Origin: an uncultured Atribacterota bacterium
GTDB lineage: Bacteria > Atribacterota > Phoenicimicrobiia > Phoenicimicrobiales > Stramentimicrobiaceae
Direction of reading: 5' to 3'
Assembly (NCBI GenBank): GCA_964433635.1
Contig: CAYSSG010000005.1
Span: 11,295 to 75,294 of the forward strand
Length of the DNA: 64,000 bases
Shown: piece by piece, positions 6,187-49,586 of the stretch
Layout: the number at the start of each line of letters is the position of its first letter
Numbering within the stretch: position 1 is the stretch's first letter
Made by a program: the position numbers and the translations under genes
The notes under the pieces: generated by a model
Seen by the model: the letters and a program-made list of their open reading frames with translations, nothing else
What the model was told of the DNA's origin: nothing
Databases searched by the model: none

Positions 6187-7224
6187 TTGAATCAATTTAT
6201 TCGTTCTACTTCCGAAATAAAGCACTACCAGGTAGATACTGGGCGGAAACTTTTTTCTGCTAATCATGATGAGATAGAAAAAGGATTGACGACTGATGTT
6301 TATTTTATAAGAGCCCTGGAAATCCTGAAATATCTCCAACTGGATGGTACCAAGGTTACGGCAGAAATATTTGCCAGAAGAAAAGGAATTTTTGCCGGTG
6401 TTCAGGAAATATACAATCTGTTAAAGGATAAAAATATTAAGCTCTGGTCAATTCAAGAGGGAGATTCGTTTCAACCCAAAGAGACAGTCATGCGAATAGA
6501 GGGGCCTTATAACGAATTCGGAATTTTTGAGACAGTCATACTGGGAATACTGGCCAGCAGTTCTGCCTGGGCTACTGCAGCCAGAGCATGTCGTGATGTT
6601 GCTGGTGACAAAAAAATTATCTGTTTTGGATCCCGCCATATACACCCGGCAGTTGCCCCGGTCATGGAGAGATCCGCTATAATCGGTGGTATTGACGGAG
6701 CCAGTTGCATTCTGGGAGCGAAATTGATGGGCCAGGAGCCTCAGGGAACGATACCGCATACCGTGATCATTATTTCCGGAGACACGGTTAAGGCAGCAAA
6801 GGCATACCATCATTGCTGTCCCCCTGATGTTCCCAGGGTTATCCTGATTGATACATTTAAAGATGAGGCTGAGGAATCATTGAGGGTAGCTAATGCCTTA
6901 GGAAAAGATTTATTGGGAGTTCGGCTTGATACTCCCAGTGAAAGAGGAGGAGTATCCCCTGATCTGGTCAAAGAAGTGAGAATTCGGCTGGACCAGGCAG
7001 GATTTTCCCATGTTAAGATTTTCGTCTCCGGAGGTATAACGCCCGAACGGATTGAATTACTGAGTCAAGAAGCAGTAGATGCCTTTGGAGTGGGCAGTTT
7101 TATCAGCGATGCATCCCCCATTGATATGACCCTTGATATCAAGGAAATCGAAGGAAAACCGATTGCCAAAAGAGGGCGGATCCCCGGAAAGATTGAAAAT
7201 AAAAAGCTTGTGAAACTGATATAG
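6187..7224 (+). CDS. Nicotinate phosphoribosyltransferase family protein (COG1488-like)
   Basis: 345 aa. Weak but recognisable PRTase type II features (FGSRHIH, GGIDGAS, LIDTF, VRLDTPSERGG). TTG start with an AAAGGAAAC SD. Family-level call only. Confidence 0.55.
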   Translation: MNQFIRSTSEIKHYQVDTGRKLFSANHDEIEKGLTTDVYFIRALEILKYLQLDGTKVTAEIFARRKGIFAGVQEIYNLLKDKNIKLWSIQEGDSFQPKETVMRIEGPYNEFGIFETVILGILASSSAWATAARACRDVAGDKKIICFGSRHIHPAVAPVMERSAIIGGIDGASCILGAKLMGQEPQGTIPHTVIIISGDTVKAAKAYHHCCPPDVPRVILIDTFKDEAEESLRVANALGKDLLGVRLDTPSERGGVSPDLVKEVRIRLDQAGFSHVKIFVSGGITPERIELLSQEAVDAFGVGSFISDASPIDMTLDIKEIEGKPIAKRGRIPGKIENKKLVKLI

Positions 7225-7246
7225 CATTACGTATTATCTATATCAT
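7222..7246. repeat. Left inverted motif of intergenic cassette 1 (TAGCATTACGTATTAT...), overlapping the stop codon
   Basis: Member of a recurring motif family (see findings). Its partners are at 7811-7840, at 7616-7629 and at the other cassettes. Confidence 0.5.
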
Positions 7247-7498
7247 ATGCTGCATAATGTGAAATACTGGAAGTATAAATGTAAGATAATATAAAAAAAT
7301 CAATCTAAATTTTAAAAATTAAAATAAATCTGTTGAAAACAGAAAAATATCAGTAAACCAATCAGCTGGAAAATAAGTCATAGGAAAAGTGTAAATATAT
7401 TTAATCATTCATGTAGGGTAAATTTTTTTTATAGTGTCATTCGTTTTCGGTTTTTATATTTTGTTATTTTAGACCAGCATCTATACTTAAAAACGGTT

Positions 7499-7629
7499 TT
7501 GAAGTTTGGATTGGCAGATTCTTAATGATTTTTAACCAAAAACGAATAACTAAAAACTGAAAACAAATTTCAAGCTAACGACTGAATACCAACGACTAAC
7601 GACTTATTATTGGACTCAATACGTAATAC
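7499..7629. repeat. 131-bp perfect direct repeat, copy 1
   Basis: Identical to 7694-7824 as read by eye. Contains the AACGACT x3 sub-repeat and ends in the ATACGTAATAC motif. Confidence 0.85.
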
Positions 7630-7693
7630 ACACGACGCTATATCGTTTACCGTAAGGAGAGTTTGTGAATTGACTTTTGACACAGTATCTGAA

Positions 7694-7824
7694 TTGAAGT
7701 TTGGATTGGCAGATTCTTAATGATTTTTAACCAAAAACGAATAACTAAAAACTGAAAACAAATTTCAAGCTAACGACTGAATACCAACGACTAACGACTT
7801 ATTATTGGACTCAATACGTAATAC
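7694..7824. repeat. 131-bp perfect direct repeat, copy 2
   Basis: Identical to 7499-7629 at a 195-bp offset. Ends in the right inverted motif of the cassette, 26 nt before tRNA-Leu. Confidence 0.85.
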
Positions 7825-7850
7825 GGTATACGTTATACTGTCTTTAAATT

Positions 7851-7937
7851 GCCGGGATGGCGGAATAGGTAGACGCGCCAGCTTGAGGGGCTGGTGGGCT
7901 TATTGCTTGTGGGGGTTCAAATCCCCCTCCCGGCACC
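7851..7937 (+). tRNA. tRNA-Leu (anticodon GAG)
   Basis: Acceptor stem GCCGGGA/TCCCGGC. Anticodon stem-loop CCAGC-TTGAGGG-GCTGG, with GAG at positions 34-36. Long variable arm and T-arm GGGGG-TTCAAAT-CCCCC. Aligns with E. coli tRNA-Leu. Confidence 0.85.
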
Positions 7938-7981
7938 TCTATGCTGGTTGACGTGATATTCTAAAGGTTAATATTTTTTTA

Positions 7982-8012
7982 GAGGAAGTGCATACTTCCT
8001 TATTTTAATGTA
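7982..8012 (+). terminator. Hairpin plus T-rich tail downstream of tRNA-Leu
   Basis: AGGAAGT-gcat-ACTTCCT stem followed by TATTTTAAT. Confidence 0.4.
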
Positions 8013-8141
8013 AAAATACGGATTTTCAGTCACGAAATCCAGTCAACAGAAAATACGCTCTCCGGAGAACTTTCCAGGGAGATGAGAGGAAAGCGATTAA
8101 AAGGGTTTCAGGGATCATCTTTTCCTGATTCATTTATTGAG

Positions 8142-10057: not shown

Positions 10058-10068
10058 GAGGTGAAGGA

Positions 10069-10808: not shown

Positions 10809-10809
10809 T

Positions 10810-12722: not shown

Positions 12723-12723
12723 G

Positions 12724-13065: not shown

Positions 13066-13069
13066 ATTC

Positions 13070-13537: not shown

Positions 13538-13545
13538 AGGTTTAG

Positions 13546-35427: not shown

Positions 35428-35445
35428 AAGTAGAGGTATATTTCC

Positions 35446-36740: not shown

Positions 36741-36905
36741 CGTATACTGTATAATGTATTATGTTCCAATACTTAGGGAGTATTGGGTGGGAAAAGTGTA
36801 TACACATGCATGTAGTTTTTATTCTGTAATATTTTTTATCAACTTCAGCTAGAGCTATATTTTCAAACGATATACGTAATACAGTATACAAAATGAGATA
36901 AACAT

Positions 36906-37916: not shown

Positions 37917-37986
37917 GATTTCAGCTGAATAACAATTTTAGATTTTATGACTGTGTGTATCAGTTGATTATGAAGGAGGTATCCTG

Positions 37987-38514
37987 ATGAATATCACAAA
38001 AGATGAAAGTATCCCGGTACAGATAGCTAGAAAGAGTATGATTCATTATTTGAAGACCGGTAAAAAGATGCCACAACCAAAGGAGCTGTCCCGGGAATTA
38101 ACGGATCATCGTGCCGGTGTCTTTGTTTCTTTAAAAAAAAGAGGACAATTGAGAGGATGTATCGGAACTTTTATGCCTGCACAGGATAATATTGCCTTAG
38201 AAATTATTGATAATGCCGTAAGTGCGGCTACCCGGGATCCCCGATTTCCTGCGGTTAATATAAACGAGGTCGATCAGCTGGTTATCTCGGTTGATATTCT
38301 TTCTCCCCCGGAAAAAATTAAGGATATTTCACAGCTTGACCCTGAAAGATACGGCGTTATTGTCAGCAGTGGCTTTAAAAAAGGCCTTTTATTGCCGAAA
38401 CTGGAGGGCGTAGATACCGTGGAATATCAGATTGATATCGCCAGACAAAAAGCCGGTATCACCCCTCAGGAGGACTATCATATCGAGAGATTTGAAGTAA
38501 AGAGATTTTACTGA
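37987..38514 (+). CDS. AMMECR1-domain protein
   Basis: LRGCIGTF motif and overall AMMECR1 fold. 175 aa. GAAGGAGG SD. Confidence 0.7.
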   Translation: MNITKDESIPVQIARKSMIHYLKTGKKMPQPKELSRELTDHRAGVFVSLKKRGQLRGCIGTFMPAQDNIALEIIDNAVSAATRDPRFPAVNINEVDQLVISVDILSPPEKIKDISQLDPERYGVIVSSGFKKGLLLPKLEGVDTVEYQIDIARQKAGITPQEDYHIERFEVKRFY

Positions 38515-38597
38515 CAGAAAATTTCATAAGGTGTTTTTCTGCTATTGTGACAGTCCAGAGAATCCGGTTTTGAAGAGGCATCAGAATGTTCAATTTT

Positions 38598-39881
38598 TTA
38601 AATCAAATAGCGCAGGTAGATGTATAGGAAAGAGATTAAAAAATGAATGACCACCAGGGGAAAACCAATTTTGAAGAAGTACCAGAACCGAATAGGTTGA
38701 TTATTTTTTGCTGCTATATCTGCCACAATTAAATTAGAAGCTGTTCCGATTAGTGTTCCGTTTGCACCTATGTTTGATGCGATAGCCATTGTAATCCAGA
38801 TCGTGGGATCTATTGCCGGGATCTCTCTGATAATATGCTTGGCAACAGGAATCGCCAGATTGACGATAGGAATATTATCCAGGAACGAGGATAAGAAGGT
38901 ATTTGATGCAAAAAACAAAAAATTAATGGATTTGGGATTTTCCCTGGTTATCTGTAACAATTGTTTAGAAAATAGATTGATAATCCCGTGTTCTTCCAAA
39001 GACCCGGCCAGGATATTAAGACCCATGATAAAAAATACAATTTCCCAGTCAACCTGTGCGTAGATTGAATGTACGCTTTTTTCCGAATGTAATACCATGA
39101 GGGTAAGAGCCGCCATCAGAACAATGATGGTCAGGTCTAATTGCAGGAGATGGGAAAATAATGCGAGCGTAATTCCGATAGCCAGAACAATCATTGTTTG
39201 ATGAAATAGTTTTCGATTAATAATGCATACCTTTTCATCAATTCTATGAAAATTAGCAATAAGTTCCCTGGGAATTTTGTTTTTCAGCACCATTTTTCCG
39301 AAAACTCTTTTGAAATAATAGATTGAAATAAAGATTAAGATAATAGCAATCGGCGCAGTATGATAAATAAAATCAAAAAAGCTGAAATGAGCGGATGAAC
39401 CAATCATAATATTGGTAGGAGTGCCCAAATAGGTTGCCATGCCGCCGATGTTGGCAAAAATAATTTGAGCTATCAGGAAGGGGAGGGGTGATATTTCTAA
39501 TATTGATGTAATAGCTAAGGTAATATTGGCCATAAACAGCAGGGTGGTAATTTCATCCAGAAGGGATGATAGAATACCCGTAAGGAGAGATAGCTGAACG
39601 AATAGAGTCCAGGTATTAGTGAAACTGTATCGCATGACCTTGATAGCTAGAAATTGAAATAAACCGCTGTCTTTTGCTATGACGGTTATAATCATCATTC
39701 CAATAATAATGCCTATTTTTGTGAAATCAATATAGCCAAGAGCAGTATCGAAAGAGATGAGGCCAAGAAAAATTGCCAGAATGCCGCCAATAAAAGCCGA
39801 AGAGGTTCGGATGCGACGATTGGTAAAAATAAAATAATATACGATGCTGATAATGATGATTGTTAAAATTAACTGGTTCAT
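38598..39881 (-). CDS. Polytopic membrane transporter (ArsB/NhaD/CitMHS ion-transporter superfamily-like)
   Basis: 427 aa with about 12 TM helices. Internally duplicated. No specific substrate signature recognised. Confidence 0.5.
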   Translation of the reverse strand: MNQLILTIIIISIVYYFIFTNRRIRTSSAFIGGILAIFLGLISFDTALGYIDFTKIGIIIGMMIITVIAKDSGLFQFLAIKVMRYSFTNTWTLFVQLSLLTGILSSLLDEITTLLFMANITLAITSILEISPLPFLIAQIIFANIGGMATYLGTPTNIMIGSSAHFSFFDFIYHTAPIAIILIFISIYYFKRVFGKMVLKNKIPRELIANFHRIDEKVCIINRKLFHQTMIVLAIGITLALFSHLLQLDLTIIVLMAALTLMVLHSEKSVHSIYAQVDWEIVFFIMGLNILAGSLEEHGIINLFSKQLLQITRENPKSINFLFFASNTFLSSFLDNIPIVNLAIPVAKHIIREIPAIDPTIWITMAIASNIGANGTLIGTASNLIVADIAAKNNQPIRFWYFFKIGFPLVVIHFLISFLYIYLRYLI

Positions 39882-40215
39882 GATATCGTTCTCCGATATA
39901 TCATTGAAGTCTATTTAAACAGCTTCTTCTCTAAAAATTGTTATTTTTCTGTCTGATTCTGCAGATCCATATTGAATAAGTTCTGTCAATAAGTGATCCA
40001 ATAAATACGATCAGCTCTGAAACTGAACAGAAAATCATAAAAATTCTAAAGTTCAATTGCTAATAAAACTGATTTTATTATATAATGACGGGAGAACTGT
40101 ATTAAGCATGCTTATTTAGCATAACATAAAATCGAATCATGTGCAGCGGTAATTCACCGTTTTTTTAGGAAAAGCACTCAATTATTCAAAGTAGATTTTA
40201 AAAGGAGTTCAATGG

Positions 40216-41256
40216 ATGGCTAATCTTTCTTTATTTCCTTCTCTTTCCCGAAATATTGGTATTGATCTGGGTACTGCCACAACACTGGTTTATGTAAGAG
40301 GAAAAGGGATCATCCTGGAAGAGCCCTCTGTGGTGGCTTATCAAAAAAAGGATCATCGCATTCTTAAGGTAGGGAAAGAAGCCAGAGCCATGATAGGTAG
40401 AACCCCTCAAGGTGTATACACCGTCCGTCCGTTACAGTATGGTGTCATTGCCGATTTTGAAGTTACAGCAGAAATGCTTCGCTATTTTATTAAAAAGATT
40501 TTCAAGCGGTATCAATTTATTAAGCCTTCTATTACGATCTGCGTGCCTTCGGGAGTAACAGAAGTTGAAAAAAGAGCAGCTTCGGAAGTTGCCTACGAGT
40601 GTGGTTCTAATCGTGTCTTTCTCATTGAAGAGCCTATTGCTGCAGCGATTGGAGCGGGATTGCCTATTTTTGAACCAATGGGGAATTTAGTCATAGATAT
40701 TGGAGGAGGGACGACAGAGGTTGCTGTTATTTCTCTCGGCGGCATTGTGGTTAATGAGATAACAAAGGTAGCCGGTGATTACCTGAATCAGCAGATCAGT
40801 AAATATATCAAGGAGCAACATGGATTATTTATTGGAGACCTAACTGCAGAATCACTGAAGATAGCCTTATCCGAAAAGAATCCAGAGCAGGAAGATGGTT
40901 ATTTTGAAGTTAAAGGAAGAGATCGTCTCAGTGGATTGCCCATCAGGATTGATTTATCTCAAAATGAATTAAGAGATGCCCTTTCTGATGCAGTGAAGGT
41001 GATTGCTAATACGGTAAAAATGGCTCTGGAAAAAACACCGCCTGAACTTATTTCAGATATCATCAATAAAGGATTGATTATGACCGGTGGAGGTGCATTG
41101 CTGGCTGGTTTGGATAGGATACTTCAGGAACAGATCAGGATACCTGTTTTTATATCCAGGGAACCGCTTTACTGTGTCGTTAAAGGAACCGGTGAGGCGT
41201 TAGAGAATTTTGAAAAGTATCAGCGAGTTTTAATTAGAACCTCAAAGAGCAGATAA
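40216..41256 (+). CDS. mreB: Rod-shape determining actin homologue MreB
   Basis: IGIDLGTATTLVYV phosphate-1 motif. DIGGGTTEVAV and MTGGGALL motifs. AAAGGAG SD. Confidence 0.9.
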   Translation: MANLSLFPSLSRNIGIDLGTATTLVYVRGKGIILEEPSVVAYQKKDHRILKVGKEARAMIGRTPQGVYTVRPLQYGVIADFEVTAEMLRYFIKKIFKRYQFIKPSITICVPSGVTEVEKRAASEVAYECGSNRVFLIEEPIAAAIGAGLPIFEPMGNLVIDIGGGTTEVAVISLGGIVVNEITKVAGDYLNQQISKYIKEQHGLFIGDLTAESLKIALSEKNPEQEDGYFEVKGRDRLSGLPIRIDLSQNELRDALSDAVKVIANTVKMALEKTPPELISDIINKGLIMTGGGALLAGLDRILQEQIRIPVFISREPLYCVVKGTGEALENFEKYQRVLIRTSKSR

Positions 41257-41462
41257 TAGAAAATAATGTTCAACCGGTCTCTCATTCCCCTGCTTTTTGG
41301 TCATAAGGTAATAGTCTCAGTATAAATACATTTCTCTGATTTAAGAATGCAGATACGAATATGACCAGGAATGAGATTTCAACCTGGAGAAGCAGAATTG
41401 ATTCATGACAGTTGATCATGATGATTGATCAGGCAAGAGATAAGAGATAAGGAGCTTGGAAA

Positions 41463-42287
41463 TTGATCAGATTTTCCAGAGAAAAAAGGGCGTTTATCTT
41501 ATTTTTAACCTTCTTCCTGTTATCCGCCTTCATTATTACAGTGGATTATCATGGCAAAGGATTTTTCGGCTTTTTGGAAGATGCAGGGATGATCATCATC
41601 AAGCCCATAAACCAGACCTCCCAGAATGTCATCCGTCGTATCACCCGATTTTTCAATATGTTTGGTGAAATAGAAAAAATTCGTCAGCAAAGTAATCAAT
41701 TACGGATTGAAAGCCAGACAATAGCTCAGGAAAATGCCGTTCTGAGAGAGCAATTAGCAGCTTATGAACGAATGGAAAAAATGCTGCAGTTTAAGGAATA
41801 CTATTCTTATGATATGATCGGTGCTCAGGTCATAGGGAGGGATCCGAGCAATTGGTTTCACAGTATCATGATTGACAGAGGAAGTGTAGACCAGATAGAG
41901 ATTGATATGGGTGTTGCAACTTATAATGGTCTGGTAGGGAAGATTATACAGGTGCACCCGAGTTCATCACAGGTGGTATTATTATTGGATCAGGGCTGTT
42001 CAGTGGGTGCGATGGATCAACGTTCCCGGGAAATCGGTGTTATCAGAGGGGGGATGGAGGACAACTATTGTTATTTTGATTATATTGCTCATGATGCGGA
42101 TATTGAAATAAATGACATCGTCATTACTTCCGGTATCGGGAGTTCTGTTCCGAAAGGTATTCAGATAGGACGTATCGTAGCCATCAAGAAGGAGAAACAC
42201 GATCTCTTTCAGAGGATACTGGTCAAGCCGGAAGTTGATTTTAATAAACTGGAAGAGGTATTTGTGGTTAAACAACCTCAGGAATAA
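41463..42287 (+). CDS. mreC: Rod-shape determining protein MreC
   Basis: N-terminal TM helix, coiled coil (QLRIESQTIAQENAVLREQLAAYE), and C-terminal beta domain. TTG start with AAGGAG SD. Confidence 0.75.
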   Translation: MIRFSREKRAFILFLTFFLLSAFIITVDYHGKGFFGFLEDAGMIIIKPINQTSQNVIRRITRFFNMFGEIEKIRQQSNQLRIESQTIAQENAVLREQLAAYERMEKMLQFKEYYSYDMIGAQVIGRDPSNWFHSIMIDRGSVDQIEIDMGVATYNGLVGKIIQVHPSSSQVVLLLDQGCSVGAMDQRSREIGVIRGGMEDNYCYFDYIAHDADIEINDIVITSGIGSSVPKGIQIGRIVAIKKEKHDLFQRILVKPEVDFNKLEEVFVVKQPQE

Positions 42288-42308
42288 AAAAGGATTTTAT
42301 TGATCTGT

Positions 42309-43592
42309 ATGACTAAAGTTGAATTATATAAAATGAAAAACGGATTGAATGTGATATATTGTTCGATGCCCCAAATGCGGTCTATTTCAACCGTCATTGG
42401 AATTGCTGCCGGTTCAGTCTATGAAAATGATAAACAGCAGGGAATATCACATTTTATAGAGCATATGCTCTTTAAGGGCACCGAACAGAGATCAAATACC
42501 CTGGAGATATCCCAGTGTATTGAAGAATTAGGAGGAGAAATCAACGCCTCTACTTCAGAGGAATGTACCTTTCTATACAGTAAAGTTCTTTATAAGAATT
42601 TTACCAGTGCCTTTGAAGTCATGTCTGATATATTGAATCATTCGCTTTTTAGAGAAAGTGACATTATCCGGGAAAAAGCCATCATTATGGAAGAAATTAA
42701 TAAATATAAGGATGTTCCCGAAGACTGGATAGATTTTTTAATGAATCAGTTACTGTGGAAGAACACCGTATTAGAGAAGAATGTCTTAGGAAAGAAAGAA
42801 ACTGTAAAAAGATTTAACCGGAAAGCAATTTTAGATTATTTTCATGACATGTACCAGCCGAGCAATATGGTTATCAGTATTGCCGGTAATATCTCCCCGG
42901 AATTAATCAGGAAGGTGGTTGAAAATTCATCATTTATGATGAAGGACACCAGCATTAAAGCTAAGCCCGGCATTCAACTGTCAGAACAGACAGAACCCAG
43001 GTTGAGATTCATACCCAAAAAAGTGAATCAAGCGCATCTGTGCTTTGCTTTTGAAGGCATTTCCAGGTTTCATCCTGATAAAGTCAGCATGGATTTACTG
43101 AATATTATTCTGGGGGCAGGACTCAGTTCACGATTATTTCAGGAGATACGCGTCAAAGAAGGGCTTGCTTATGATATTCATTCCTATACCCAGTATTTCT
43201 ACGAAACAGGTTCTTTTAATATCTACGCAGGTGTAGATCCTGATAAGTTGACTCGCAGTATCGAAACAATACTGCAGGAGCTGAGAAAAATTAGGGAAGA
43301 TAAAATAGGTATTCATGAATTAAAAAAAGCGAAGGAAATGTATAAGGGGAGCATTTTATTAGGTCTCGAGAATACATTGAGCTATGCTTTTCGTCTTGGA
43401 ACCTATCTATTGTTATATCAGAAGGTATATCAGTACAAGGAGATGGTAGACAGGATAGAATGTGTTCAGTTTGAAGACATCAGGAAACTGGCACAAAATA
43501 TTTTTCTGAGCAACAAAATAAATGCTGTTATATTTTTTCCGGATGATAGAAAGATGAAAAAAGACAGACTGAAGCGTTTAATGGAAATTTAG
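42309..43592 (+). CDS. M16-family (pitrilysin-like) zinc peptidase
   Basis: Inverted zinc motif HFIEHMLFKGT (HxxEH). 430 aa from the ATG at 42309. ORF opens at TTG 42300. Confidence 0.8.
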   Translation: MTKVELYKMKNGLNVIYCSMPQMRSISTVIGIAAGSVYENDKQQGISHFIEHMLFKGTEQRSNTLEISQCIEELGGEINASTSEECTFLYSKVLYKNFTSAFEVMSDILNHSLFRESDIIREKAIIMEEINKYKDVPEDWIDFLMNQLLWKNTVLEKNVLGKKETVKRFNRKAILDYFHDMYQPSNMVISIAGNISPELIRKVVENSSFMMKDTSIKAKPGIQLSEQTEPRLRFIPKKVNQAHLCFAFEGISRFHPDKVSMDLLNIILGAGLSSRLFQEIRVKEGLAYDIHSYTQYFYETGSFNIYAGVDPDKLTRSIETILQELRKIREDKIGIHELKKAKEMYKGSILLGLENTLSYAFRLGTYLLLYQKVYQYKEMVDRIECVQFEDIRKLAQNIFLSNKINAVIFFPDDRKMKKDRLKRLMEI

Positions 43593-43613
43593 GACGATCG
43601 GGAGCCTGAGTAA

Positions 43614-43802
43614 ATGCCGCTGGATTTGAGAAATGGTGACATCGTAAAATTAAAAAAGAAACATCCCTGTGGCGGATATCATTGGGAAATTACCAGAACG
43701 GGAATAGATATCGGTTTAAAATGTCTCTGTTGCGGACACAAGGTACTGGTTCCCAGAGTGAAAATTGAAAGAAGAATCAGACAGGTCATCAAGAGGGATT
43801 AA
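43614..43802 (+). CDS. DUF951-family small zinc-ribbon protein (YyzM-like)
   Basis: GDIVKLKKKHPCGG...CLCCGHKVLVPR, close to B. subtilis YyzM. Conserved neighbourhood upstream of rpsF. Confidence 0.7.
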   Translation: MPLDLRNGDIVKLKKKHPCGGYHWEITRTGIDIGLKCLCCGHKVLVPRVKIERRIRQVIKRD

Positions 43803-43836
43803 TATGATTTACCCAATGAAAAATTTCCTGCCTATC

Positions 43837-43871
43837 TTGCTATAAGAAGAAGCCGGTGTTATAATAATGAA
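43837..43871 (+). promoter_or_regulatory. SigmaA promoter for rpsF-rpsR (-35 TTGCTA, extended -10 TGtTATAAT)
   Basis: TTGCTA at 43837-43842, 17-nt spacer, TGTTATAAT at 43857-43865. A CTCCTGCC-AAAA-GGCAGGGG hairpin lies in the leader. Confidence 0.55.
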
Positions 43872-43931
43872 GCATTTTTCCTTGCTCCTGCCAAAAGGCA
43901 GGGGCTATCAAGACCAGAAGGAGGTGAACAA

Positions 43932-44249
43932 ATGCGTAATTACGAACTGATGATATTATTGGAACCCAATCTTCAAGAAGAAGACAGCACAGCCCTGCTT
44001 GATAAAATCCAGCAAACCATCAAGACCAATCAAGGAAATATCATTAAGCTGAATCAATGGGGAAAAAGAAAATTAGCCTATGATATAAAAAAATTTCAGG
44101 AAGCGATCTATACCCTCATTGATTTTGAACTGGAACCGGCACATCTTGCCGATTTAGAGAAAAGTATCAAGTTTAATGAAAAAATACTGAGATATTTGAT
44201 TGTTCTGGGGCAGGAAAAGATACATTCCAGAAAAGAAGAGGATAAGTAG
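43932..44249 (+). CDS. rpsF: 30S ribosomal protein S6
   Basis: MRNYELMILLEP...KLNQWGKRKLAY signature. Confidence 0.9.
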   Translation: MRNYELMILLEPNLQEEDSTALLDKIQQTIKTNQGNIIKLNQWGKRKLAYDIKKFQEAIYTLIDFELEPAHLADLEKSIKFNEKILRYLIVLGQEKIHSRKEEDK

Positions 44250-44292
44250 AAAAAAAGTTTTATTATTGATTGAAACAGGAAGGAATTAACGA

Positions 44293-44529
44293 ATGTTCAG
44301 AAAAAGTGCCTACCGAGGATTACGAGGAAGGAGAAAAATCTGCTATTTTTGTGCTGAAAAGAAGGTAGCAGATTATAAGGATATTGAACTGTTGAACCGA
44401 TTTATCAGTGACCAGGGAAAAATATTACCCCGTCGGGTAACCGGTAACTGTGCAAAACATCAGAGATCCCTGGCTATTGCGATTAAGCGTGCGCGAGAAG
44501 TCGCATTACTTCCTTATGTTAATCGTTGA
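44293..44529 (+). CDS. rpsR: 30S ribosomal protein S18
   Basis: [11 protein letters not shown]...[12 protein letters not shown] signature. AGGAAGGA SD. Confidence 0.9.
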
Positions 44530-44680
44530 TGAAGGACAATAAAATACCGGACATCTTCTTTCAGGTCATCAATTAAGTATGAATGCAGGATTGAAAGGTG
44601 ATATAAGGAAGGCATCTATAGAGAGAGTAATATCATCTGAATAGACCAGTGTAAACAGGTCAGGCAAAGGGGTTTGACGA

Positions 44681-45643
44681 TTGAAAGAACGCATACCGAC
44701 CAGGTCGATTGTTGAAGGTGCCTTTCTTTCAGCAATAACAGCAATATTATTTTTATTTAGTCTGTATATTCCCTTGCTGGGGACCTTCATCAGTTTTTTA
44801 TGCCCTTTACCGATTATTATTTTGTGCTTACGGCACAATCTTAAAATAGCCTTTCTTTCGTTGTTGATTGCTTTTTTCCTGGTGAGCCTGATAGCAGGTC
44901 CATTTCAGGGATTCGTTGCGGTATTGGGTTTTGGTACCCTGGGGATAGCTCTGGGTGTTACCATCAAACGAAAATATTCTTTGATGGAAATTATCCTGGT
45001 CGGAAGCATTGCTTCGTTTATTTCCAAGATATTTTTAATGTTAGTCAGTCTGTTGATCATGGATGTGAACCCATTATTATTGGGATTGGATGACATTGAT
45101 CAGAGTATTAATCAGAGCTTGTCCTTTTATGGGAATATGGGTTTAAAGCCTGAACAGATTGATGCTTTTAAAGCGTCGCTCTTAAGGTCTTTGGAATTAA
45201 TGAGAATAGCCTTTCCTGCGATGCTGTTGATTGCCTCAGTGTTTGATACGCTGATTAACTATTGGGTTACCGGAAAGGTTTTAAAGCGGTTTGGGTATGA
45301 CCTGGAACCCTTCGTGCCTTTTCGTCAATGGCGGGCAAGCCGGTCATTTTTCTGGAGTTACCTGGTTGGACTATTTATCCTGATTATAAATAGCAGGTTG
45401 AAGATGGCGGTATTGGAAAGGATCGGTATAAATATTCAGTTATTGTTCTCCATTATATTTTTTATTTCCGGATTAGCGGTTGTATCTTATATTCTGTATC
45501 ACTATCAAATCAAACCATTTTTCTGCTGGTTTATTTATATCATTCTATTGATTCAGCCCGGATTGTCTTTCATTGTTACCTGGATAGGAATTTTTGATGT
45601 TTGGATTGATTTTAGAAGATTCATTTCACAGCATGATACTTGA
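44681..45643 (+). CDS. DUF2232/YybS-like polytopic membrane protein
   Basis: 320 aa with about 8 TM helices. Sits in the YybS position between rpsR and rplI. TTG start. Confidence 0.55.
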   Translation: MKERIPTRSIVEGAFLSAITAILFLFSLYIPLLGTFISFLCPLPIIILCLRHNLKIAFLSLLIAFFLVSLIAGPFQGFVAVLGFGTLGIALGVTIKRKYSLMEIILVGSIASFISKIFLMLVSLLIMDVNPLLLGLDDIDQSINQSLSFYGNMGLKPEQIDAFKASLLRSLELMRIAFPAMLLIASVFDTLINYWVTGKVLKRFGYDLEPFVPFRQWRASRSFFWSYLVGLFILIINSRLKMAVLERIGINIQLLFSIIFFISGLAVVSYILYHYQIKPFFCWFIYIILLIQPGLSFIVTWIGIFDVWIDFRRFISQHDT

Positions 45644-45727
45644 TTCTTTGGAAATGCTAAATCATTTATTCAGAATCACAATCAGGTATTTCAGGAAAAA
45701 ATTGATTATAAAACGGAGGTACAAACC

Positions 45728-46258
45728 ATGAAGGTTATATTAAAGGAAAATGTTGATAAAATAGGATATGTTGGGGATGTGGTAGAAGTAAACCGCGGAT
45801 ATGCTCGCAATTACTTATTCCCGATGGGGCTGGCAATTGAATTTACCGGTGGGAACTTAAAATCAATTGAACATCTGAAGAAAAAAGAGTGGGAAAAAAG
45901 AAACCGGGAAGTAAAGGAAGCCCGGCAATTAGCAGAAAAAATCAATGAGATTACCCTCGTCTTTCAGGCTAAAGCTGGAAAAGACGGAAAGCTGTTTGGT
46001 TCTGTAACCCACAAGGATATTGCAGATTCTTTGACAGAAAACTATCAGATTGAGATTGATCGCAAAAAGATTGAACATACTGAACCCCTGAAAAAGACAG
46101 GGGATTATCAGGTAGGCATTCATTTGTATAAAGAGGTTGATGCCAGATTAAAAATTAAGATTATTCCGGAAGAAGAGGAAGTTAAAAAGGAAGAACAGGA
46201 AAAACAATCTGCTGAGAAAAAAACAGAGATAACCGAGCAGGAAAAAGAAAGATCATAA
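45728..46258 (+). CDS. rplI: 50S ribosomal protein L9 with Lys/Glu-rich C-terminal extension
   Basis: MKVILKENVDKIGYVGDVVEV N-terminus. About 30-aa acidic/basic tail (EEEEVKKEEQEKQSAEKK). Confidence 0.9.
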   Translation: MKVILKENVDKIGYVGDVVEVNRGYARNYLFPMGLAIEFTGGNLKSIEHLKKKEWEKRNREVKEARQLAEKINEITLVFQAKAGKDGKLFGSVTHKDIADSLTENYQIEIDRKKIEHTEPLKKTGDYQVGIHLYKEVDARLKIKIIPEEEEVKKEEQEKQSAEKKTEITEQEKERS

Positions 46259-46315
46259 TGCAATCTTGTTTTTTATTCCTGATTGATTTTCATTTTTTTG
46301 GCAATTAGGAGAAAC

Positions 46316-47656
46316 ATGATGGAATTAACCAGAAATGCACCTCAGAATATTAGTGCAGAACAGGCTGTGCTTGGTTCAATTATTCTGGAAAAAGAATCGA
46401 TATTGAATTGCATTGAAATCCTGCAATCTGAAGACTTCTATAGGAACGCGCATCAGTTTATTTACCAGTGTGCACTGGATTTGTTTGAAAAAAATCAGGC
46501 AGTAGATTTGATTACACTGACAGAAGAACTGAAAAAAAGAAAACAGCTTGATGAAGCGGGTGGAGCTTCTTACCTGACCACACTGATGAGCAGCGTTCCT
46601 ACAGCTGCCAATGTTGTTTATTATGCAAAAATTGTAGAAGAAAAGGCCATTCTGAGAAGATTAATTAATCATGCCACTCAGATTGTGACGATGGGATATG
46701 AAGAGCAGGAAGATGCCCGGGTATTGCTCGATAAGGCTGAGAATCTTATTTTTGATATTTCGAAACAGAAAACTGAGCATTATTTCAGCCCCATAAAAGA
46801 TCTGTTGACAGAAAGTTTTGAAAAAATTGAAGATCTGTATCATCGTGATAATTTTATCACCGGTGTACCCAGTGGGTTCATAGAGTTTGATGAACTTACA
46901 ACCGGTTTTCAGCCCTCAGAATTAGTCATCGTGGCCGGAAGGCCATCGATGGGTAAGACAGCATTTTGTATGAATATTGCTCAATATGCAGCAATGCAGC
47001 ATAAAATTCCCATTGCGATATTCAGTCTTGAGATGTCCAAAGCCCAGATTGTCCAGAGGATGTTGTGTTCTGAGGCAAGAATTGATACGCATGCCCTACG
47101 GAGAGGTATTATGCCTGAAGAAGACTGGCCTAAATTGTCGATGGCTGCCGGCAGATTATCTGCTGCACCGATCTTTGTTGATGATTCTGCTGGAATATCC
47201 CCGTTGGAAATTAAGGCAAAGGCCAGACGATTAAAAGCCAAAAATGATCTGGGACTCATCCTGATTGATTATCTGCAGTTAATTCAGACTGGATTAAAGA
47301 TTGAAAACCGGCAACAGGAAATATCTCACATCTCGCGTTCTCTGAAAGGATTAGCTCGAGAACTGAACATCCCCATTATTGCGGTTTCCCAGTTATCAAG
47401 GGCAGTCGAACAGCGTTCTGTTCAACGCCCCCGGCTTTCTGACTTACGAGAGAGCGGGGCAATCGAGCAGGATGCAGATGTCGTGGTTTTTCTTTATCGT
47501 GAAGATTACTATAAACCCAAAAGCAGTAAGAAGGGCATTGCGGAAGTCATTATCAGCAAACAGAGGAATGGGCCCACCGGAACATTGGAACTGGCTTTCC
47601 TGAAAGAGTTTACCCGTTTTGAAAATCTGGCCCGAGTCAGGGAAGAAATGGATTAA
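46316..47656 (+). CDS. dnaB: Replicative DNA helicase DnaB
   Basis: PQNISAEQAVLGSIIL N-terminus. Walker A GRPSMGKTAF. ORF opens at 46283; ATG 46316 after AGGAGAAAC is preferred. Confidence 0.9.
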   Translation: MMELTRNAPQNISAEQAVLGSIILEKESILNCIEILQSEDFYRNAHQFIYQCALDLFEKNQAVDLITLTEELKKRKQLDEAGGASYLTTLMSSVPTAANVVYYAKIVEEKAILRRLINHATQIVTMGYEEQEDARVLLDKAENLIFDISKQKTEHYFSPIKDLLTESFEKIEDLYHRDNFITGVPSGFIEFDELTTGFQPSELVIVAGRPSMGKTAFCMNIAQYAAMQHKIPIAIFSLEMSKAQIVQRMLCSEARIDTHALRRGIMPEEDWPKLSMAAGRLSAAPIFVDDSAGISPLEIKAKARRLKAKNDLGLILIDYLQLIQTGLKIENRQQEISHISRSLKGLARELNIPIIAVSQLSRAVEQRSVQRPRLSDLRESGAIEQDADVVVFLYREDYYKPKSSKKGIAEVIISKQRNGPTGTLELAFLKEFTRFENLARVREEMD

Positions 47657-47750
47657 AATGATGATTGCGCATTGAGGTAAAAATAGTCGAGACAACCAGT
47701 TATTCAAAGTGCAAGATGTAGCATGGCTCATACATTTGACTGAATTTTAA

Positions 47751-47779
47751 TTGACACATTTTTCAAAATAGTGTAACAT
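47751..47779 (+). promoter_or_regulatory. Promoter for tRNA cluster (-35 TTGACA, -10 TAACAT)
   Basis: TTGACA at 47751-47756, 17-nt spacer, TAACAT at 47774-47779. Confidence 0.45.
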
Positions 47780-47816
47780 TGTAAGGCAATTGAAAAGAAT
47801 AAAAAACAATTGTTGC

Positions 47817-47892
47817 GGGCCGTTAGCTCAGTTGGCAGAGCATCTGACTCTTAATCAGAGGGTCGCAGGTTCGAGGCCTGCACGGCCTACCA
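47817..47892 (+). tRNA. tRNA-Lys (anticodon CTT)
   Basis: Acceptor GGGCCGT/ACGGCCT. Anticodon arm TCTGA-CTCTTAA-TCAGA. 3' CCA encoded. Confidence 0.8.
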
Positions 47893-47899
47893 GATATAC

Positions 47900-47975
47900 G
47901 CCTCCATCGTCTAGGGGTTCAGGACACCGCCCTTTCACGGCGGCGACAGGGGTTCAAATCCCCTTGGAGGCACCA
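47900..47975 (+). tRNA. tRNA-Glu (anticodon TTC)
   Basis: Acceptor GCCTCCA/TGGAGGC. Anticodon arm CCGCC-CTTTCAC-GGCGG. CCA encoded. Confidence 0.8.
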
Positions 47976-47993
47976 CGTTTTATATGGATAAAT

Positions 47994-48069
47994 GGGCGGA
48001 TAGCTCAGTTGGCAGAGCACCTGCTTCACATGTAGGGGGTCACAGGTTCAAGTCCTGTTCCGCCTACCA
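47994..48069 (+). tRNA. tRNA-Val (anticodon CAC)
   Basis: Acceptor GGGCGGA/TCCGCCT. Anticodon arm CCTGC-TTCACAT-GTAGG. CCA encoded. Confidence 0.75.
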
Positions 48070-48077
48070 TTTTTTCA

Positions 48078-48108
48078 CTCCATCGGAATTTCTCATAAAT
48101 TCCGATGG
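48078..48108. other. Perfect 12-bp-stem hairpin between tRNA-Val and tRNA-Thr
   Basis: CCATCGGAATTT-ctcata-AAATTCCGATGG, preceded by TTTTTTC. Confidence 0.5.
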
Positions 48109-48204
48109 AACAATCAATATTTATTATTCTGTTTATCATTTTAATCTCAAGGAATTTGAAATACACCTTCACTTGTTAATCCGGGAGATACATGATTTAT
48201 TGGT

Positions 48205-48280
48205 GCCGGTGTAGCTCAATTGGCAGAGCAACGGAATCGTAATCCGTAGGTTGTCTGTTCAACTCAGATCACCGGCTCCA
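48205..48280 (+). tRNA. tRNA-Thr (anticodon CGT)
   Basis: Acceptor GCCGGTG/CACCGGC. Anticodon arm ACGGA-ATCGTAA-TCCGT. CCA encoded. Confidence 0.8.
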
Positions 48281-48450
48281 TGAATGATGCCAACACCATT
48301 TTGAAGATTCCAATGATCTTGCAATGTTCATTTAAATGAAATAATTGATTTCGATACAATTAGGTGAATGCACCCTGCCTGTTACTGAGGAAAGCACTTA
48401 TGGATTTCCATATTCATTCAAATCTATTTTCCCCCAAAGCAATCATTGAT

Positions 48451-49299
48451 ATGATGAACAGATATCAATTCCGGCCTAAAAAGAGATTAGGACAAAACTT
48501 TCTCATCGACAAAAATATTGCCTCAATCATTGTAAAAGCCCTGCGCTTGAATAAAGAGGATTCCATATTTGAAATTGGTACCGGTATGGGATCCCTGACT
48601 TTATCATTAACGCCTGGTGTAAAGCATATTTTTTCTGTTGAAAAGGACACTCGTCTGAAACCAATTTTGGATCATATTGTGTCTGATTATCAGAATGAGA
48701 TTACAATTATGTATCAGGATATTCTGGATTTCGATTTAGTCGACTTTCTGAACAGGAAAAAACAGGAAGGTTATCAAGTAAGAAAATTAGCCGGGAACTT
48801 ACCTTACTCCATTTCACTACCTTTACTGAAAAAACTGATGGAAATGCACGATTATTTGGATACAGCAGTGATCATGGTTCAAAGGGAGGTTGCCGAACGC
48901 ATGATGGCTGTATCCGGTGATAAGAATTATGGTGTCCTTTCTCTTGTGTCCAGCTATTATGCAGATATCAAAAAGATTCACCTGGTAAAACCGGAAGCAT
49001 TCTTTCCAAGACCTGCCGTAGACTCAATGATTGTTAGAATTGAATTTTTAACCAGACCAAGGGTCATTATTGAAGACGAAGACCTCTTTTTTGACCTGAT
49101 TCACGCCATTTTTCAACACCGGAGAAAAAGTGTAAAGAATGCTTTGCAATTGTATTTTGGTGATAGGCTTGATCAGAGTAAACTGGACAATTCACTTCTC
49201 AGAATCGGATTACCATTGAGCCGGCGAGGAGAAAGCTTTAGTTTGGAAGAATTTTCAAGGTTAACCAGCGAAATCAAGAAAATCATAAAATGCAGTTAA
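48451..49299 (+). CDS. rsmA: 16S rRNA (adenine1518/1519-N6)-dimethyltransferase RsmA/KsgA
   Basis: RLGQNFLIDKNI and SAM motif EIGTGMGSLT. ORF opens at 48364; ATG 48451 (MMNRYQFRPKKRLGQNFL) fits the family N-terminus. Confidence 0.85.
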   Translation: MMNRYQFRPKKRLGQNFLIDKNIASIIVKALRLNKEDSIFEIGTGMGSLTLSLTPGVKHIFSVEKDTRLKPILDHIVSDYQNEITIMYQDILDFDLVDFLNRKKQEGYQVRKLAGNLPYSISLPLLKKLMEMHDYLDTAVIMVQREVAERMMAVSGDKNYGVLSLVSSYYADIKKIHLVKPEAFFPRPAVDSMIVRIEFLTRPRVIIEDEDLFFDLIHAIFQHRRKSVKNALQLYFGDRLDQSKLDNSLLRIGLPLSRRGESFSLEEFSRLTSEIKKIIKCS

Positions 49300-49586
49300 T
49301 AGTATTACGTATACCGTATAACGTAGAGACTGAAGAATAATTGAAAATAGTAGAACTTAAGCCTCGACTTACGATTATAGAGAAAATTAATATTCAATAT
49401 AACACTTAACACAGTGAATATAAAGTAAAGTCAATAATCCAGGATTCAATTAGACACTTAAGAAATTGTTTTATCGGATAAAACCAATTCCATGCGACAA
49501 TATAAAGTTTGATGGCTTATGATTATAAGATTTAGCTTTCAATAATACTTAGAAACGTTATACGCAATACAATACGGTATACTATT

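Follow-up and report, generated by a model that had tools for sequence, protein, structure and literature searches.

Four intergenic cassettes in the window

The window, the whole 64,000-nt stretch of Atribacterota DNA that was analysed, contains four intergenic cassettes, located between a QRPTase-family gene and tRNA-Leu, between hypB and hypF, between hypD and hypE, and downstream of ksgA. The sequence-only reading described each of them as bracketed by inverted copies of one 20–25 nt motif. All eight copies were found at the stated coordinates, but the motif is in fact a tandem array of three to four seven-base units, ACGNNAT (equivalent to GNNATAC), ending in ...ATAC. In the lineage of the window, left arms read (GTATNNC)n and right arms (GNNATAC)n. 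The parts of the cassettes are as follows.

7225–7237, minus strand: degenerate left arm of cassette 1 (CATTACGTATTAT), at about 1.5 units weaker than any of the other seven copies, immediately after the TAG stop (7222–7224) of the QRPTase-family gene
7436–7472, minus strand: inner left arm of cassette 1, second heptamer family (GTCATTCGTTTTCGGTTTTTATATTTTGTTATTTTAG; complement of AAAACNN / AACNNNN), read directly; inverted partner at 7531–7573
7499–7629, plus strand: cassette 1, copy 1 of a 131-bp perfect direct repeat, with AACNNNN units (7531–7573), AACGACT units (about 7577–7606) and the start of an ATACG array
7694–7824, plus strand: cassette 1, copy 2 of the 131-bp perfect direct repeat, continuing into the terminal ATACG arm
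7812–7838, plus strand: right arm of cassette 1, CAAT ACGTAAT ACGGTAT ACGTTAT AC, 12 nt ahead of tRNA-Leu (7851)
32795–32822, minus strand: left arm of cassette 2, GTATATA GTATAAC GTATACC GTATCAC, running over the final codons of hypB and its TAG stop (32800–32802)
32823–33016, no strand: interior of cassette 2, AT-rich, without a contained ORF
33017–33046, plus strand: right arm of cassette 2, ACGGTAT ACGATAT ACGTAAT ACGGTAT AC, 41 nt ahead of the hypF ATG
36735–36764, minus strand: left arm of cassette 3, GTATAGC GTATACT GTATAAT GTATTAT GT, overlapping the hypD stop (TAG, 36738–36740)
36765–36866, no strand: interior of cassette 3, with a single internal hairpin (CCAATACTTAGGGAGTATTGG)
36867–36889, plus strand: right arm of cassette 3, ACGATAT ACGTAAT ACAGTAT AC, 16 nt ahead of the hypE ATG
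49302–49325, minus strand: left arm of cassette 4, GTATTAC GTATACC GTATAAC GTA, 2 nt past the ksgA (RrnaAD) stop (TAA, 49297–49299)
49326–49554, no strand: interior of cassette 4, AT-rich, without an ORF of at least 36 aa
49555–49583, plus strand: right arm of cassette 4, ACGTTAT ACGCAAT ACAAT ACGGTAT AC, including one 5-nt unit, 12 nt upstream of a promoter-like site, TTGACA-18-TAAAAT (49596–49625)

A second heptamer family (AACNNNN / AACGACT) is thus also present in cassette 1.

ACGNNAT arrays occupy 7816–7836, 33017–33044, 36867–36889 and 49555–49583 on the plus strand and 32804–32817, 36737–36764 and 49304–49324 on the minus strand. The minus-strand arrays lie just past a stop codon and the plus-strand arrays ahead of the next gene, so that the arms are inverted and point outward. 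Their occurrence exceeds chance: the core GTATACCGTATTACGTATAC (up to 3 mismatches) was found five times, against 0.00 expected from 100 dinucleotide-preserving shuffles, TACGTAWTAC occurs 5 times against 0.08 expected, and 8 arrays (exact 4-mers, three times at 7-nt spacing) were counted, against 0–2 in shuffles. Only 4 of the approximately 33 intergenic gaps of at least 60 nt in the window carry such arrays. The left arms, placed 0–3 nt from stop codons in the sequence-only reading, overlap or directly follow the stop; the copy at 7222 is weak. On the right side, the distance to the hypE ATG stands, whereas both tRNA-Leu and the TTGACA −35 box lie 12 nt away rather than 13 and 4 nt, and the arm said to precede the hypF ribosome-binding site ends 41 nt ahead of the hypF ATG; the adjoining AAGGAG is probably not that ribosome-binding site.

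Contiguous heptads with five conserved positions, in direct and inverted orientation, are also what protein-binding DNA sites might look like, whether for a nucleoid protein or as operators made of heptads, such as the omega repressor of pSM19035 has. A protein bridging the arms would insulate blocks of genes or force the spacer into a loop, thereby regulating hyp and neighbouring genes, and the arrays do divide the window into blocks (7851–32802, 33088–36740 and 36906–49299). However, the arms lie on stop codons and within operons, away from promoters. No clear promoter was detected in the cassettes folded or scanned, and promoter-like sites in or beside the cassettes were not above chance, except that low-scoring sites were slightly in excess in the AT-rich surroundings of cassette 1. 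No shared function unites the genes flanking arrays, which are hyp, ksgA, tRNA, lon, gspF/gspG, cas and aminoacyl-tRNA synthetase genes, and the unit sequences vary among orthologous loci of relatives, which a single regulator would not tolerate. The operator alternative, also raised in the sequence-only reading, is therefore improbable.

Interiors and predicted pairing of the arms

The four interiors, previously described as not obviously related and non-coding, lack mutual similarity, and no ORF of at least 60 aa is contained within any cassette; the interior of cassette 2 has no Rfam match and no similarity to the other cassettes. An RNA stem looping out the spacer, as had been proposed, was predicted for all three cassettes folded (2, 3 and 4), whose MFE and centroid structures alike are closed by a stem of the left and right arms, with modest z-scores (−2.5, −2.2 and −2.0, respectively). 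The longest unbroken complementarity between arms is just 10–11 bp in cassettes 3 and 4, and the variable unit positions frequently mismatch between the two arms; selection may therefore maintain something other than pairing. An apparent excess of matches at these variable positions is confounded by genome-specific unit usage.

The hyp junctions in related Atribacterota

Inverted heptamer arrays were present at the hypB-hypF and/or hypD-hypE junction in five Atribacterota relatives, but with different unit families (ATACGNN, ACNCAAT and AAAACNN / AACTNNN). The left and right arms belonged to the same family in all four relative cassettes with both arms measured, and consensus units from the same locus were 0–2 mismatches from being reverse-complementary, against a mean of 2.7 across loci. 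In L130 the hyp junctions are plain gaps (91 and 109 nt), and in L131, a distant relative, the hypB/hypF and hypD/hypE genes overlap, giving what look like empty sites.

The sequence-only reading suggested a MITE- or REP-like family. Classical MITEs would be insertion-sequence deletion derivatives moved in trans by a transposase recognising their terminal inverted repeats, and the inverted ends, size (150–620 bp) and intergenic location of the cassettes, the apparent empty sites in the distant relative, and assembly breaks at arms (metagenome contigs from the same population end at the right arm of cassette 2, 33017–33046) would be consistent with this. However, no target-site duplication was seen when the four cassettes were read directly, their interiors are unrelated, no transposase or other gene recurred beside 120 array-bearing loci, and an insert is kept at the same two junctions across genera despite the change in arm family. 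Neither identical dispersed copies nor target-site duplications, which would mark mobility, were found. We consider classical MITEs very improbable, and the cassettes are not REP-like in the usual sense either. A fixed terminal inverted repeat was also rejected, since the ends are slippage-prone tandem heptamers. The Correia elements of Neisseria and the enterobacterial ERIC sequences are MITE-type repeats that share transcripts with genes and are cleaved by RNase III; they too are small intergenic inserts with inverted ends that fold in mRNA, where processing can alter transcript fate. Unlike the cassettes, which have only repeat-built ends in common, they are conserved over their full length and have target-site duplications.

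The arms evolve as strand slippage adds or removes 7-nt units: L126 and L127 (99.8% identical) show a single indel over 13.6 kb, a 7-nt unit of the arm located at the hypD stop, and L323 and L324 also differ by one unit. The interiors, in turn, change rapidly: sequence is deleted or duplicated, and other heptamer arrays become nested within it, as is demonstrated in part. The arrays might then be nothing but slippage-made heptanucleotide simple-sequence repeats (LSSR/STRR class) with no element identity, arising and growing in free intergenic DNA until functional sequence is met, with inverted pairs a by-product of, for example, hairpin-templated repair, and with the IVP genes described below being one of several things that land in or beside them. 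The gain and loss of units between near-identical strains would be expected in this case, as would the tight abutment of arrays to gene ends in many phyla and the coexistence of many unit families replacing one another at a single locus. Published surveys, moreover, place heptanucleotides first in abundance among the long simple-sequence repeats of prokaryotes (Mrazek 2007, as cited in PMC4679880 and PMC4692102). On the other hand, five positions of the unit are conserved and two are free, with neighbouring units seldom identical, a pattern that constraint fits better than fresh slippage. Across phyla, the arrangement (ATNNCGT)n...(ACGNNAT)n predominates over its reverse both in genomes (21 to 5) and in metagenomes (24 to 5), 45 to 10 overall, and one unit family is common to both arms of a cassette. 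Slippage alone is also difficult to reconcile with the association described below, and we regard it as possible but unlikely.

Association with IVP genes

[quoted passage not shown] In other Atribacterota, a PF05635 gene is enclosed by the same ATAC-type arms, in what would be full-length relatives of the window cassettes. L287, L323 and L331 (GC 0.28–0.33, against 0.40 in the window; IVP homologs named Atribacteria or Atribacterota) share the layout stop codon, (GTATNNC)n, leader, PF05635 gene, stop codon, (GNNATAC)n and ribosome-binding site of the next gene, and the arms of L323 were predicted to form a 25-bp closing stem. ATAC-type arms around IVP were seen only in these other Atribacterota lineages and in L203, in which the IVP gene has an in-frame stop. 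In the window, the IVP gene is absent throughout, and neither its cassettes nor the hyp cassettes of relatives contain an IVP gene or a detectable remnant, as would be expected for plain slippage repeats; the interiors of the window cassettes have nothing in common with IVP-bearing cassettes. However, L287 carries an ORF-less and an IVP-bearing cassette on the same contig with a common 65-nt leader (91% identical), which argues against such repeats.

The association extends beyond Atribacterota. Among IVP genes picked regardless of repeats, inverted heptamer arrays bracketed 6 of 13 in a plasmid sample, compared with none of 97 control genes (p = 8e-7), and 23 of 43 in a viral-contig sample, compared with none of 172 control windows (p = 2e-19). 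Of the 43 viral-contig cases, 38 had an array on at least one side. So strong an association with one gene family is not expected of slippage repeats. One plasmid case (L321, Azospirillum) lies inside 23S rRNA and is a true intervening sequence with heptamer arms. IVP is reported to form a toroidal pentamer (Lin 2006, cited in PMC4990558), which would make it a conceivable binder if the arms were operators.

Relationship to known systems

The sequence-only reading did not recognise the cassettes as a described element; for the class, this was wrong. Cyanobacterial STRR repeats (Calothrix PCC 7601) are likewise tandem heptamers of several families, dispersed, intergenic and unexplained, although described as direct tandem arrays for fingerprinting. 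To our knowledge, their description includes neither pairing into inverted brackets nor a link to IVP. They appear as reference 39 in PMC4692102. The heterogeneous arrays of Xanthomonas (GGGAATC / GGGANTN) and Nostoc (GGGGAYT) (Rehm et al. 2015, PMC4692102) match the arms in architecture, with a 7-nt unit, about five conserved positions and typically about four units. They are intergenic, form many convergent inverted pairs (70–75 per genome for GGGANTN, with stop-codon overlap), keep their positions between species while varying in length and sequence, and have no explained function. However, their units are G-rich and were read as G-quadruplex formers, which ATACGNN cannot be, and no IVP link was drawn. 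The TAACTGA direct repeats of marine Beggiatoaceae, cyanobacteria and Bacteroidetes (MacGregor 2015, PMC4679880) also form arrays of 2–6 heptamers, lying a few nucleotides ahead of start codons in fixed orientation and scattered over phyla, and the hypD-hypE cassette of L125 (Atribacterota) has TAACTGA-like units; nevertheless, nearly all of the reported cases are single direct arrays, just one being inverted, and the repeats were read as translational signals.

The 23S rRNA intervening sequences with an S23p/IVP ORF (Coxiella burnetii, Leptospira and Brucella; PMC4990558) are similar in that inverted repeats close a long stem. In Coxiella, a 28-bp terminal stem encloses the S23p ORF and is cut by RNase III, with 2–3 GACAGAT heptamers, varying in number by strain, in the stem region at the cut site (PMC4990558). 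The PF05635 gene may be enclosed or lost, and is decaying in Coxiella as in L203; the insert lies within a transcription unit without destroying it, and L321 is a true 23S case with heptamer arms. By contrast, the window copies lie between protein-coding or tRNA genes rather than in rRNA helices, are ORF-less and have the unit ATACGNN, and their cleavage by RNase III is suggested by analogy only.

We therefore favour, with a probability of roughly 0.6, the interpretation that the four spacers belong, as ORF-less members, to a class of intervening-sequence-type inserts that is widespread and bounded by inverted tandem-heptanucleotide arrays. In keeping with the earlier proposal of a non-autonomous family, they look like non-autonomous members of a family defined by its inverted ends. 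The insert fits exactly into the space from one gene's stop codon to the translation or transcription signals of its downstream neighbour and would be co-transcribed with the host operon. The two arms, as folding predicts, would pair into a long-range stem looping out the whole spacer, and RNase III may cut this stem as in 23S rRNA intervening sequences, removing or isolating the insert in RNA. The class is already known, best as intervening sequences splitting 23S rRNA, and the tie of heptamer-armed inserts to the IVP gene looks much more general than the literature found reports. Removal or isolation at the RNA level would explain how such inserts are tolerated within operons, such as at hypB-hypF and hypD-hypE.

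Tandem heptamer arrays at the ends of the cassettes

A sequence-only reading had placed eight inverted copies of one motif around four intergenic spacers (cassettes 1–4), and direct reading found all eight at their positions. What had been taken for a single motif of about 20–25 nt is, in register, a tandem array of three or four 7-nt units (ACGNNAT) ending in ...ATAC; this detail only had been misdescribed. The left copy at 7222 is present, yet degenerate. The motif is enriched over chance: when no more than three mismatches were allowed, its 20-nt core occurred five times in the window (0.00 expected) and TACGTAWTAC also five times (0.08 expected). Eight arrays were formed by exact 4-mers recurring three times with a spacing of 7 nt, against 0–2 in shuffled sequences, and these counts together exclude a chance origin of the arrays. 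The cassettes and their features are as follows:

Cassette 1, between a QRPTase-family gene and tRNA-Leu
7816–7836, plus strand, right-end array of ACGNNAT units
7499–7629 and 7694–7824, perfect 131-bp direct repeat in cassette 1, with a 64-nt spacer between the copies
Cassette 2, between hypB and hypF
32804–32817, minus strand, left-end array of ACGNNAT units
33017–33044, plus strand, right-end array of ACGNNAT units
Cassette 3, between hypD and hypE
36737–36764, minus strand, left-end array of ACGNNAT units
36867–36889, plus strand, right-end array of ACGNNAT units
Cassette 4, between ksgA and spoVG
49304–49324, minus strand, left-end array of ACGNNAT units
49555–49583, plus strand, right-end array of ACGNNAT units

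Several features noted by the sequence-only reading were borne out. Each left arm overlaps, or comes after, the stop codon of the gene before it (the QRPTase-family gene, hypB, hypD and ksgA), and each right arm lies ahead of a gene (tRNA-Leu, hypF and hypE) or, in cassette 4, of a promoter-like site preceding spoVG. The interiors are mutually unrelated, only the arms matching between the four cassettes, and contain no ORF of 60 aa or more. Arrays were found in only 4 of the approximately 33 intergenic gaps of at least 60 nt in the window. Cassette 1 is composite, with a second heptamer family (AACNNNN, AACGACT) that has its own inverted partner at 7436–7472, and the 131-bp repeat looks like a recent duplication of its right end. 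Each copy of this repeat holds three adjoining heptamer families (AACNNNN, AACGACT and ATACGNN). Four clustered tRNA genes (Lys, Glu, Val and Thr; window 47817–48280) lie just upstream of ksgA, and the 135 nt separating tRNA-Val from tRNA-Thr include a hairpin-like sequence.

No cassette matched an Rfam family, at gathering thresholds or at E values up to 1, and neither promoters nor terminators within the cassettes were clearly above chance. The AT-rich region of cassette 1 had a mild excess of low-scoring promoter-like matches (10, with 4.7 expected), and the sole strong promoter-like site was located just outside cassette 4. Restriction-site avoidance was considered and rejected, with GTATAC found 15 times (11.9 expected) and TACGTA 8 times (4.3 expected). 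[quoted passage not shown]

Junctions of the hyp operon in relatives

HypD homologs assign the window to Atribacterota (Caldatribacteriota). The gene order was kept in relatives with 58–76% HypD identity, in which the two junctions had the following contents:

L125, L126/L127, L128 and L132: inverted heptamer arrays at one or both of hypB–hypF and hypD–hypE
L130: plain gaps of 91 and 109 nt at hypB–hypF and hypD–hypE
L131, the most distant relative: overlapping genes at both junctions, which look like empty sites

Filled and apparently empty (L131) hyp sites thus both exist, as the sequence-only reading had envisaged for a comparison of orthologous junctions. The position of the arrays was kept between related genomes while their length and sequence varied, and the unit families differed by genome (ATACGNN, ACNCAAT and AAAACNN/AACTNNN, the last including TAACTGA). 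One family was common to the left and right arms in all four of the relatives' cassettes with both arms measured (L125 and L126), and the gap upstream of hypF in L128 had different families at its two ends. Consensus units from the same locus were 0–2 mismatches from reverse-complementary, against a cross-locus mean of 2.7. L126 and L127 are 99.8% identical, and over 13.6 kb the only indel between them consists of a single 7-nt unit of the arm located at the hypD stop; L323 and L324 likewise differ from each other by one unit. The filled and empty sites, the changing families and the one-unit indel indicate that the cassettes are old insertions at gene junctions, in an originally compact operon, with slippage-prone ends and contents that turn over. 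In a pair of orthologous cassettes elsewhere (L196, 4639–4872, and L246, 5532–5741), the flanks were 84–95% identical, yet beyond their first 39 nt the spacers had nothing in common; interiors are thus replaced far more rapidly than the sequence around them.

These comparisons also bear on the possibility that the arms are DNA operators or looping sites. The operators of ribbon-helix-helix repressors such as omega from pSM19035 consist of contiguous 7-bp heptads, direct or inverted, at the promoters of the regulated genes. Heptads are likewise present in the window, but are placed on stop codons and within operons, their units are not the same from one orthologous locus to another, the genes beside them have no function in common, and there is no above-chance promoter signal at the arrays. 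We therefore regard this explanation as improbable.

The population of the window was present in three public sequencing runs, and two of the three recovered contigs, from independent runs, start at the right arm of cassette 2, one inside it (L122, window 33031) and the other just after it (L123, 33048). Heptamer arrays seem to break or gap short-read assemblies. The hypB–hypF cassette of L127 is represented by a run of N. In L131 (3553–4758), a formate/nitrite transporter-family ORF of only 93 aa is followed directly by an IS110-family transposase gene and may have been truncated by it.

Similar arrays in other phyla

Most of the arrays escape generic period-7 detectors when thresholds are strict. 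A pattern scan of one genome per species yielded at least 120 loci, mainly from Chloroflexota, Planctomycetota, Atribacterota, Omnitrophota, Acidobacteriota, Bacteroidota/Rhodothermota and the candidate phyla radiation. Among the genome matches listed, the arrangement (ATNNCGT)n-spacer-(ACGNNAT)n was found 21 times and the reverse 5 times, with spacers of 9–368 nt; an independent metagenome scan gave 24 and 5, with spacers of 9–533 nt. As this arrangement is its own reverse complement, the orientation bias reflects a genuine polarity of the structure. The pairs occupy their intergenic gaps with little room to spare, whether the genes are convergent or co-directional, and ACGNNAT read towards a gene start in 54 arrays, against 21 in the control orientation. 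The gap between gspF and gspG was a recurrent site in Planctomycetota and Omnitrophota. Five loci (L069, L095, L101, L051 and L104), from these two phyla and one betaproteobacterium, have inverted ATACG-type arrays in the gap adjoining the T2SS protein F gene and/or the major pseudopilin gene gspG; the order in L101 is gspF stop, left arm, 30 nt, right arm, AAAGGAG and gspG ATG. In Candidatus Oleihabitans (Atribacterota), ATACG arrays (L054, 680–960 and 6740–6890; L065, 290–340) are preceded by runs of AGTAATA, CCAGATA and AACGACC and directly followed by a repeated module, TTTTGTCATTGCGAGGAGC(G/A)AAGCGACGAAGCAATCTC, forming tandem composite repeats. A scan of viral contigs for the ATACG array gave 56 scattered matches.

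A gene travelling with the arrays was sought by clustering 545 ORFs located beside them (matches listed, at least 120 loci), and this candidate was rejected, as only translated repeats and the recurrent gspF–gspG location emerged. The MITE- or REP-like family suggested by the sequence-only reading could not be upheld. Inverted arms common to all four cassettes recall a classical MITE, but the interiors are unrelated, the flanks of the four cassettes, read directly, have no shared target-site duplication, and no transposase or other gene recurs beside the arrays among the matches listed, making such an element very improbable. REP and REPIN sequences are imperfect palindromes of 20–40 nt with a GTAG/CGTC head, and the RAYT transposase gene is flanked by such units. 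The window arms are, in contrast, tandem heptamers, and no RAYT-like neighbour was seen beside the arrays among the matches listed.

Association of the arrays with IVP genes

In a metagenome locus from another Atribacterota (L287, 4246–4831), ATAC-type arms enclose a 119-aa ORF, the nearest homologs of which carry the names Atribacteria or Atribacterota. Variants of this ORF with at least 76% identity number more than 100, and many of them come from contigs of 0.5–0.8 kb. An IVP gene also lies within ATAC-type arms in L323, upstream of lon, and in L331, between two aminoacyl-tRNA synthetase genes. Both have the layout stop, (GTATNNC)n, leader, IVP gene with its stop, (GNNATAC)n and ribosome-binding site of the next gene, with a unit number that varies among samples. 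In L323 the arms are predicted to pair as a 25-bp stem enclosing the ORF. L287 also has an ORF-less cassette, with a 65-nt leader 91% identical to that of its IVP-bearing cassette, and the IVP gene of L203 has an in-frame stop.

IVP genes were then sampled irrespective of repeats. In a plasmid set consisting mostly of cyanobacteria, with Riemerella, Gemmatirosa and Azospirillum, 6 of 13 IVP genes were found in inverted heptamer brackets by a strict automatic test (most of the remaining cases being bracketed by eye), against 0 of 97 control genes (Fisher p = 8e-7). In contigs from viral collections, 23 of 43 were bracketed, against 0 of 172 same-locus control windows (Fisher p = 2e-19), and 38 of the 43 had at least one flanking array; none of the 269 pooled controls was bracketed. 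IVP genes are thus generally associated with inverted heptamer arrays, and we did not find such general bracketing stated in the literature searchable here. The bracket unit varies from copy to copy (GGGAACA, GGCAGAA, GGTGACA, AAGGTTC, AGGGAGT and others). The Azospirillum case lies within 23S rRNA and is therefore a true intervening sequence (IVS) with heptamer arms. Other loci read here lie between conjugation, partition and housekeeping genes. A 50-kb stretch of a Nostoc plasmid has three inverted pairs, one with an IVP gene and two ORF-less (spacers of 116 and 131 nt), and ORF-less brackets were commoner than the IVP-bearing form in the regions examined.

Plasmids of Pseudanabaena (L312) and Anabaena sp. 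90 (L317) have an IVP gene and long arrays between cas6 and cas4 of CRISPR-cas operons, the upstream array of L312 comprising about 15 AAAGCTA units. In Gemmatirosa (L318, GC 73%), the arrays beside the IVP gene consist of 8-nt units (CTCCTGCC), so the period is not strictly fixed across the class. Most IVP loci with brackets are rich in purines in the upstream arm and in pyrimidines in the downstream one (e.g. GGGAACA...TGTTCCC), a polarity also seen in Xanthomonas arrays.

Slippage alone might generate such arrays, without any element identity, and the window has no IVP gene or remnant. However, this explanation leaves the polarity, the same-family arms and the IVP association unaccounted for, and we consider it unlikely. 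A telomere-like 3′-end addition model for the inverted arrays was dropped, since adjacent units differ and nothing was in its favour.

Relation to known elements and proposed mechanism

The sequence-only reading had not recognised the cassettes as a described element, but the same kind has been published in Coxiella, Xanthomonas and Beggiatoaceae. The 23S rRNA IVS of Coxiella burnetii is a 428-nt selfish element with a 28-bp terminal stem cut by RNase III; it encloses a decaying S23p ORF, and its 5′ stem region has two to three GACAGAT heptamers, in strain-variable number (PMC4990558). This was the only paper joining heptamers with intervening sequences in the literature searchable here. Xanthomonas genomes each have about 185 GGGANTN arrays, mostly of four units, with 70–75 convergent pairs; the arrays overlap stops on the coding strand, are located upstream of ORFs on the other strand and keep their positions between species (Rehm et al. 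2015, PMC4692102). TAACTGA repeats just upstream of start codons are known from Beggiatoaceae, cyanobacteria and Bacteroidetes (MacGregor 2015, PMC4679880). IVP genes in cas operons and rRNA insertions have been noted, with repeats unmentioned (PMC3936711; bioRxiv 10.1101/2024.02.27.582315).

The window cassettes resemble the Coxiella-type IVS in having terminal inverted repeats that are predicted to close a long stem (cassettes 2, 3 and 4) and, with their relatives, in period-7 stems of variable unit number (L126/L127 and L323/L324). They differ in adjoining protein or tRNA genes rather than occupying a 23S rRNA helix, and in having no PF05635 ORF, which is present in the same-armed Atribacterota loci L287, L323 and L331. 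With the Xanthomonas and Nostoc-type arrays they share intergenic runs of 2–6 partly degenerate 7-nt units, at most 50 nt from ORF ends, with stop overlap and convergent inverted pairs, and, at the relatives' junctions, a position kept while length and sequence vary. However, the ATACGNN unit has no G tracts and is therefore not of the G-rich, G-quadruplex-capable type. What is new in the window is that the cassettes are ORF-less, lie between protein or tRNA genes, have the ATACGNN unit and occur in Atribacterota; the kind itself is published.

An RNA stem looping out the spacer, as the sequence-only reading had proposed, agrees with the MFE and centroid folds of cassettes 2, 3 and 4, in which the arms are predicted to pair (z-scores of −2.5, −2.2 and −2.0). 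Against the IVS-type reading, the window lacks an IVP gene or remnant, arm complementarity is imperfect in cassettes 3 and 4, slippage alone might produce the arrays, and the variable positions of opposing units are often mismatched. Covariation at these positions (0.74 versus 0.49) was rejected as evidence of pairing, being confounded by genome-specific unit usage. On the likeliest reading, which follows the analogy with Coxiella, a cassette would be transcribed together with its host operon, the paired arms would form the closing stem in cassettes 2, 3 and 4, and RNase III would cut this stem; the insert would thereby be removed or isolated at the RNA level, and would be tolerated between cistrons for this reason.

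A more speculative reading, with a probability of about 0.3, is that a single, very widespread and hitherto unrecognised class of selfish inserts has inverted tandem-heptamer arrays as its cis ends. Its trans factor would be the IVP, a pentameric four-helix-bundle protein related to Avd. This protein would bind to the arms through their 7-nt periodicity, in RNA or in DNA, and help the cassette to spread, to be maintained or to be processed. The 23S rRNA IVS would then be no more than the best-known special case, and the ORF-less cassettes of the window would belong to a non-autonomous majority, of the same kind as the STRR repeats of cyanobacteria, the GGGAATC repeats of Xanthomonas and the TAACTGA repeats of Beggiatoaceae.

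Significance

Taken alone, the cassettes of the window are probably harmless relics, and they may shape the processing of hyp operon transcripts. Cyanobacteria, Xanthomonas and giant sulfur bacteria are all reported to have heptanucleotide arrays close to gene ends, for which there is no accepted explanation, and the PF05635 protein, the structure of which has been solved, has to our knowledge no known function. On the evidence reached from this window (23 of 43 and 6 of 13 IVP genes bracketed, across phyla, against 0 of 269 controls), the two puzzles would be one. If confirmed, this would trace much of the heptamer repeat content of bacteria to an origin that can be tested, suggest candidate cis sites for the IVP and point to a general route by which inserts are tolerated in operons and rRNA, being excised or isolated at the RNA level. 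Some assembly breaks may also be explained, the one population examined having contigs that end exactly at an arm. General bracketing of IVP genes would tie several old repeat puzzles together.
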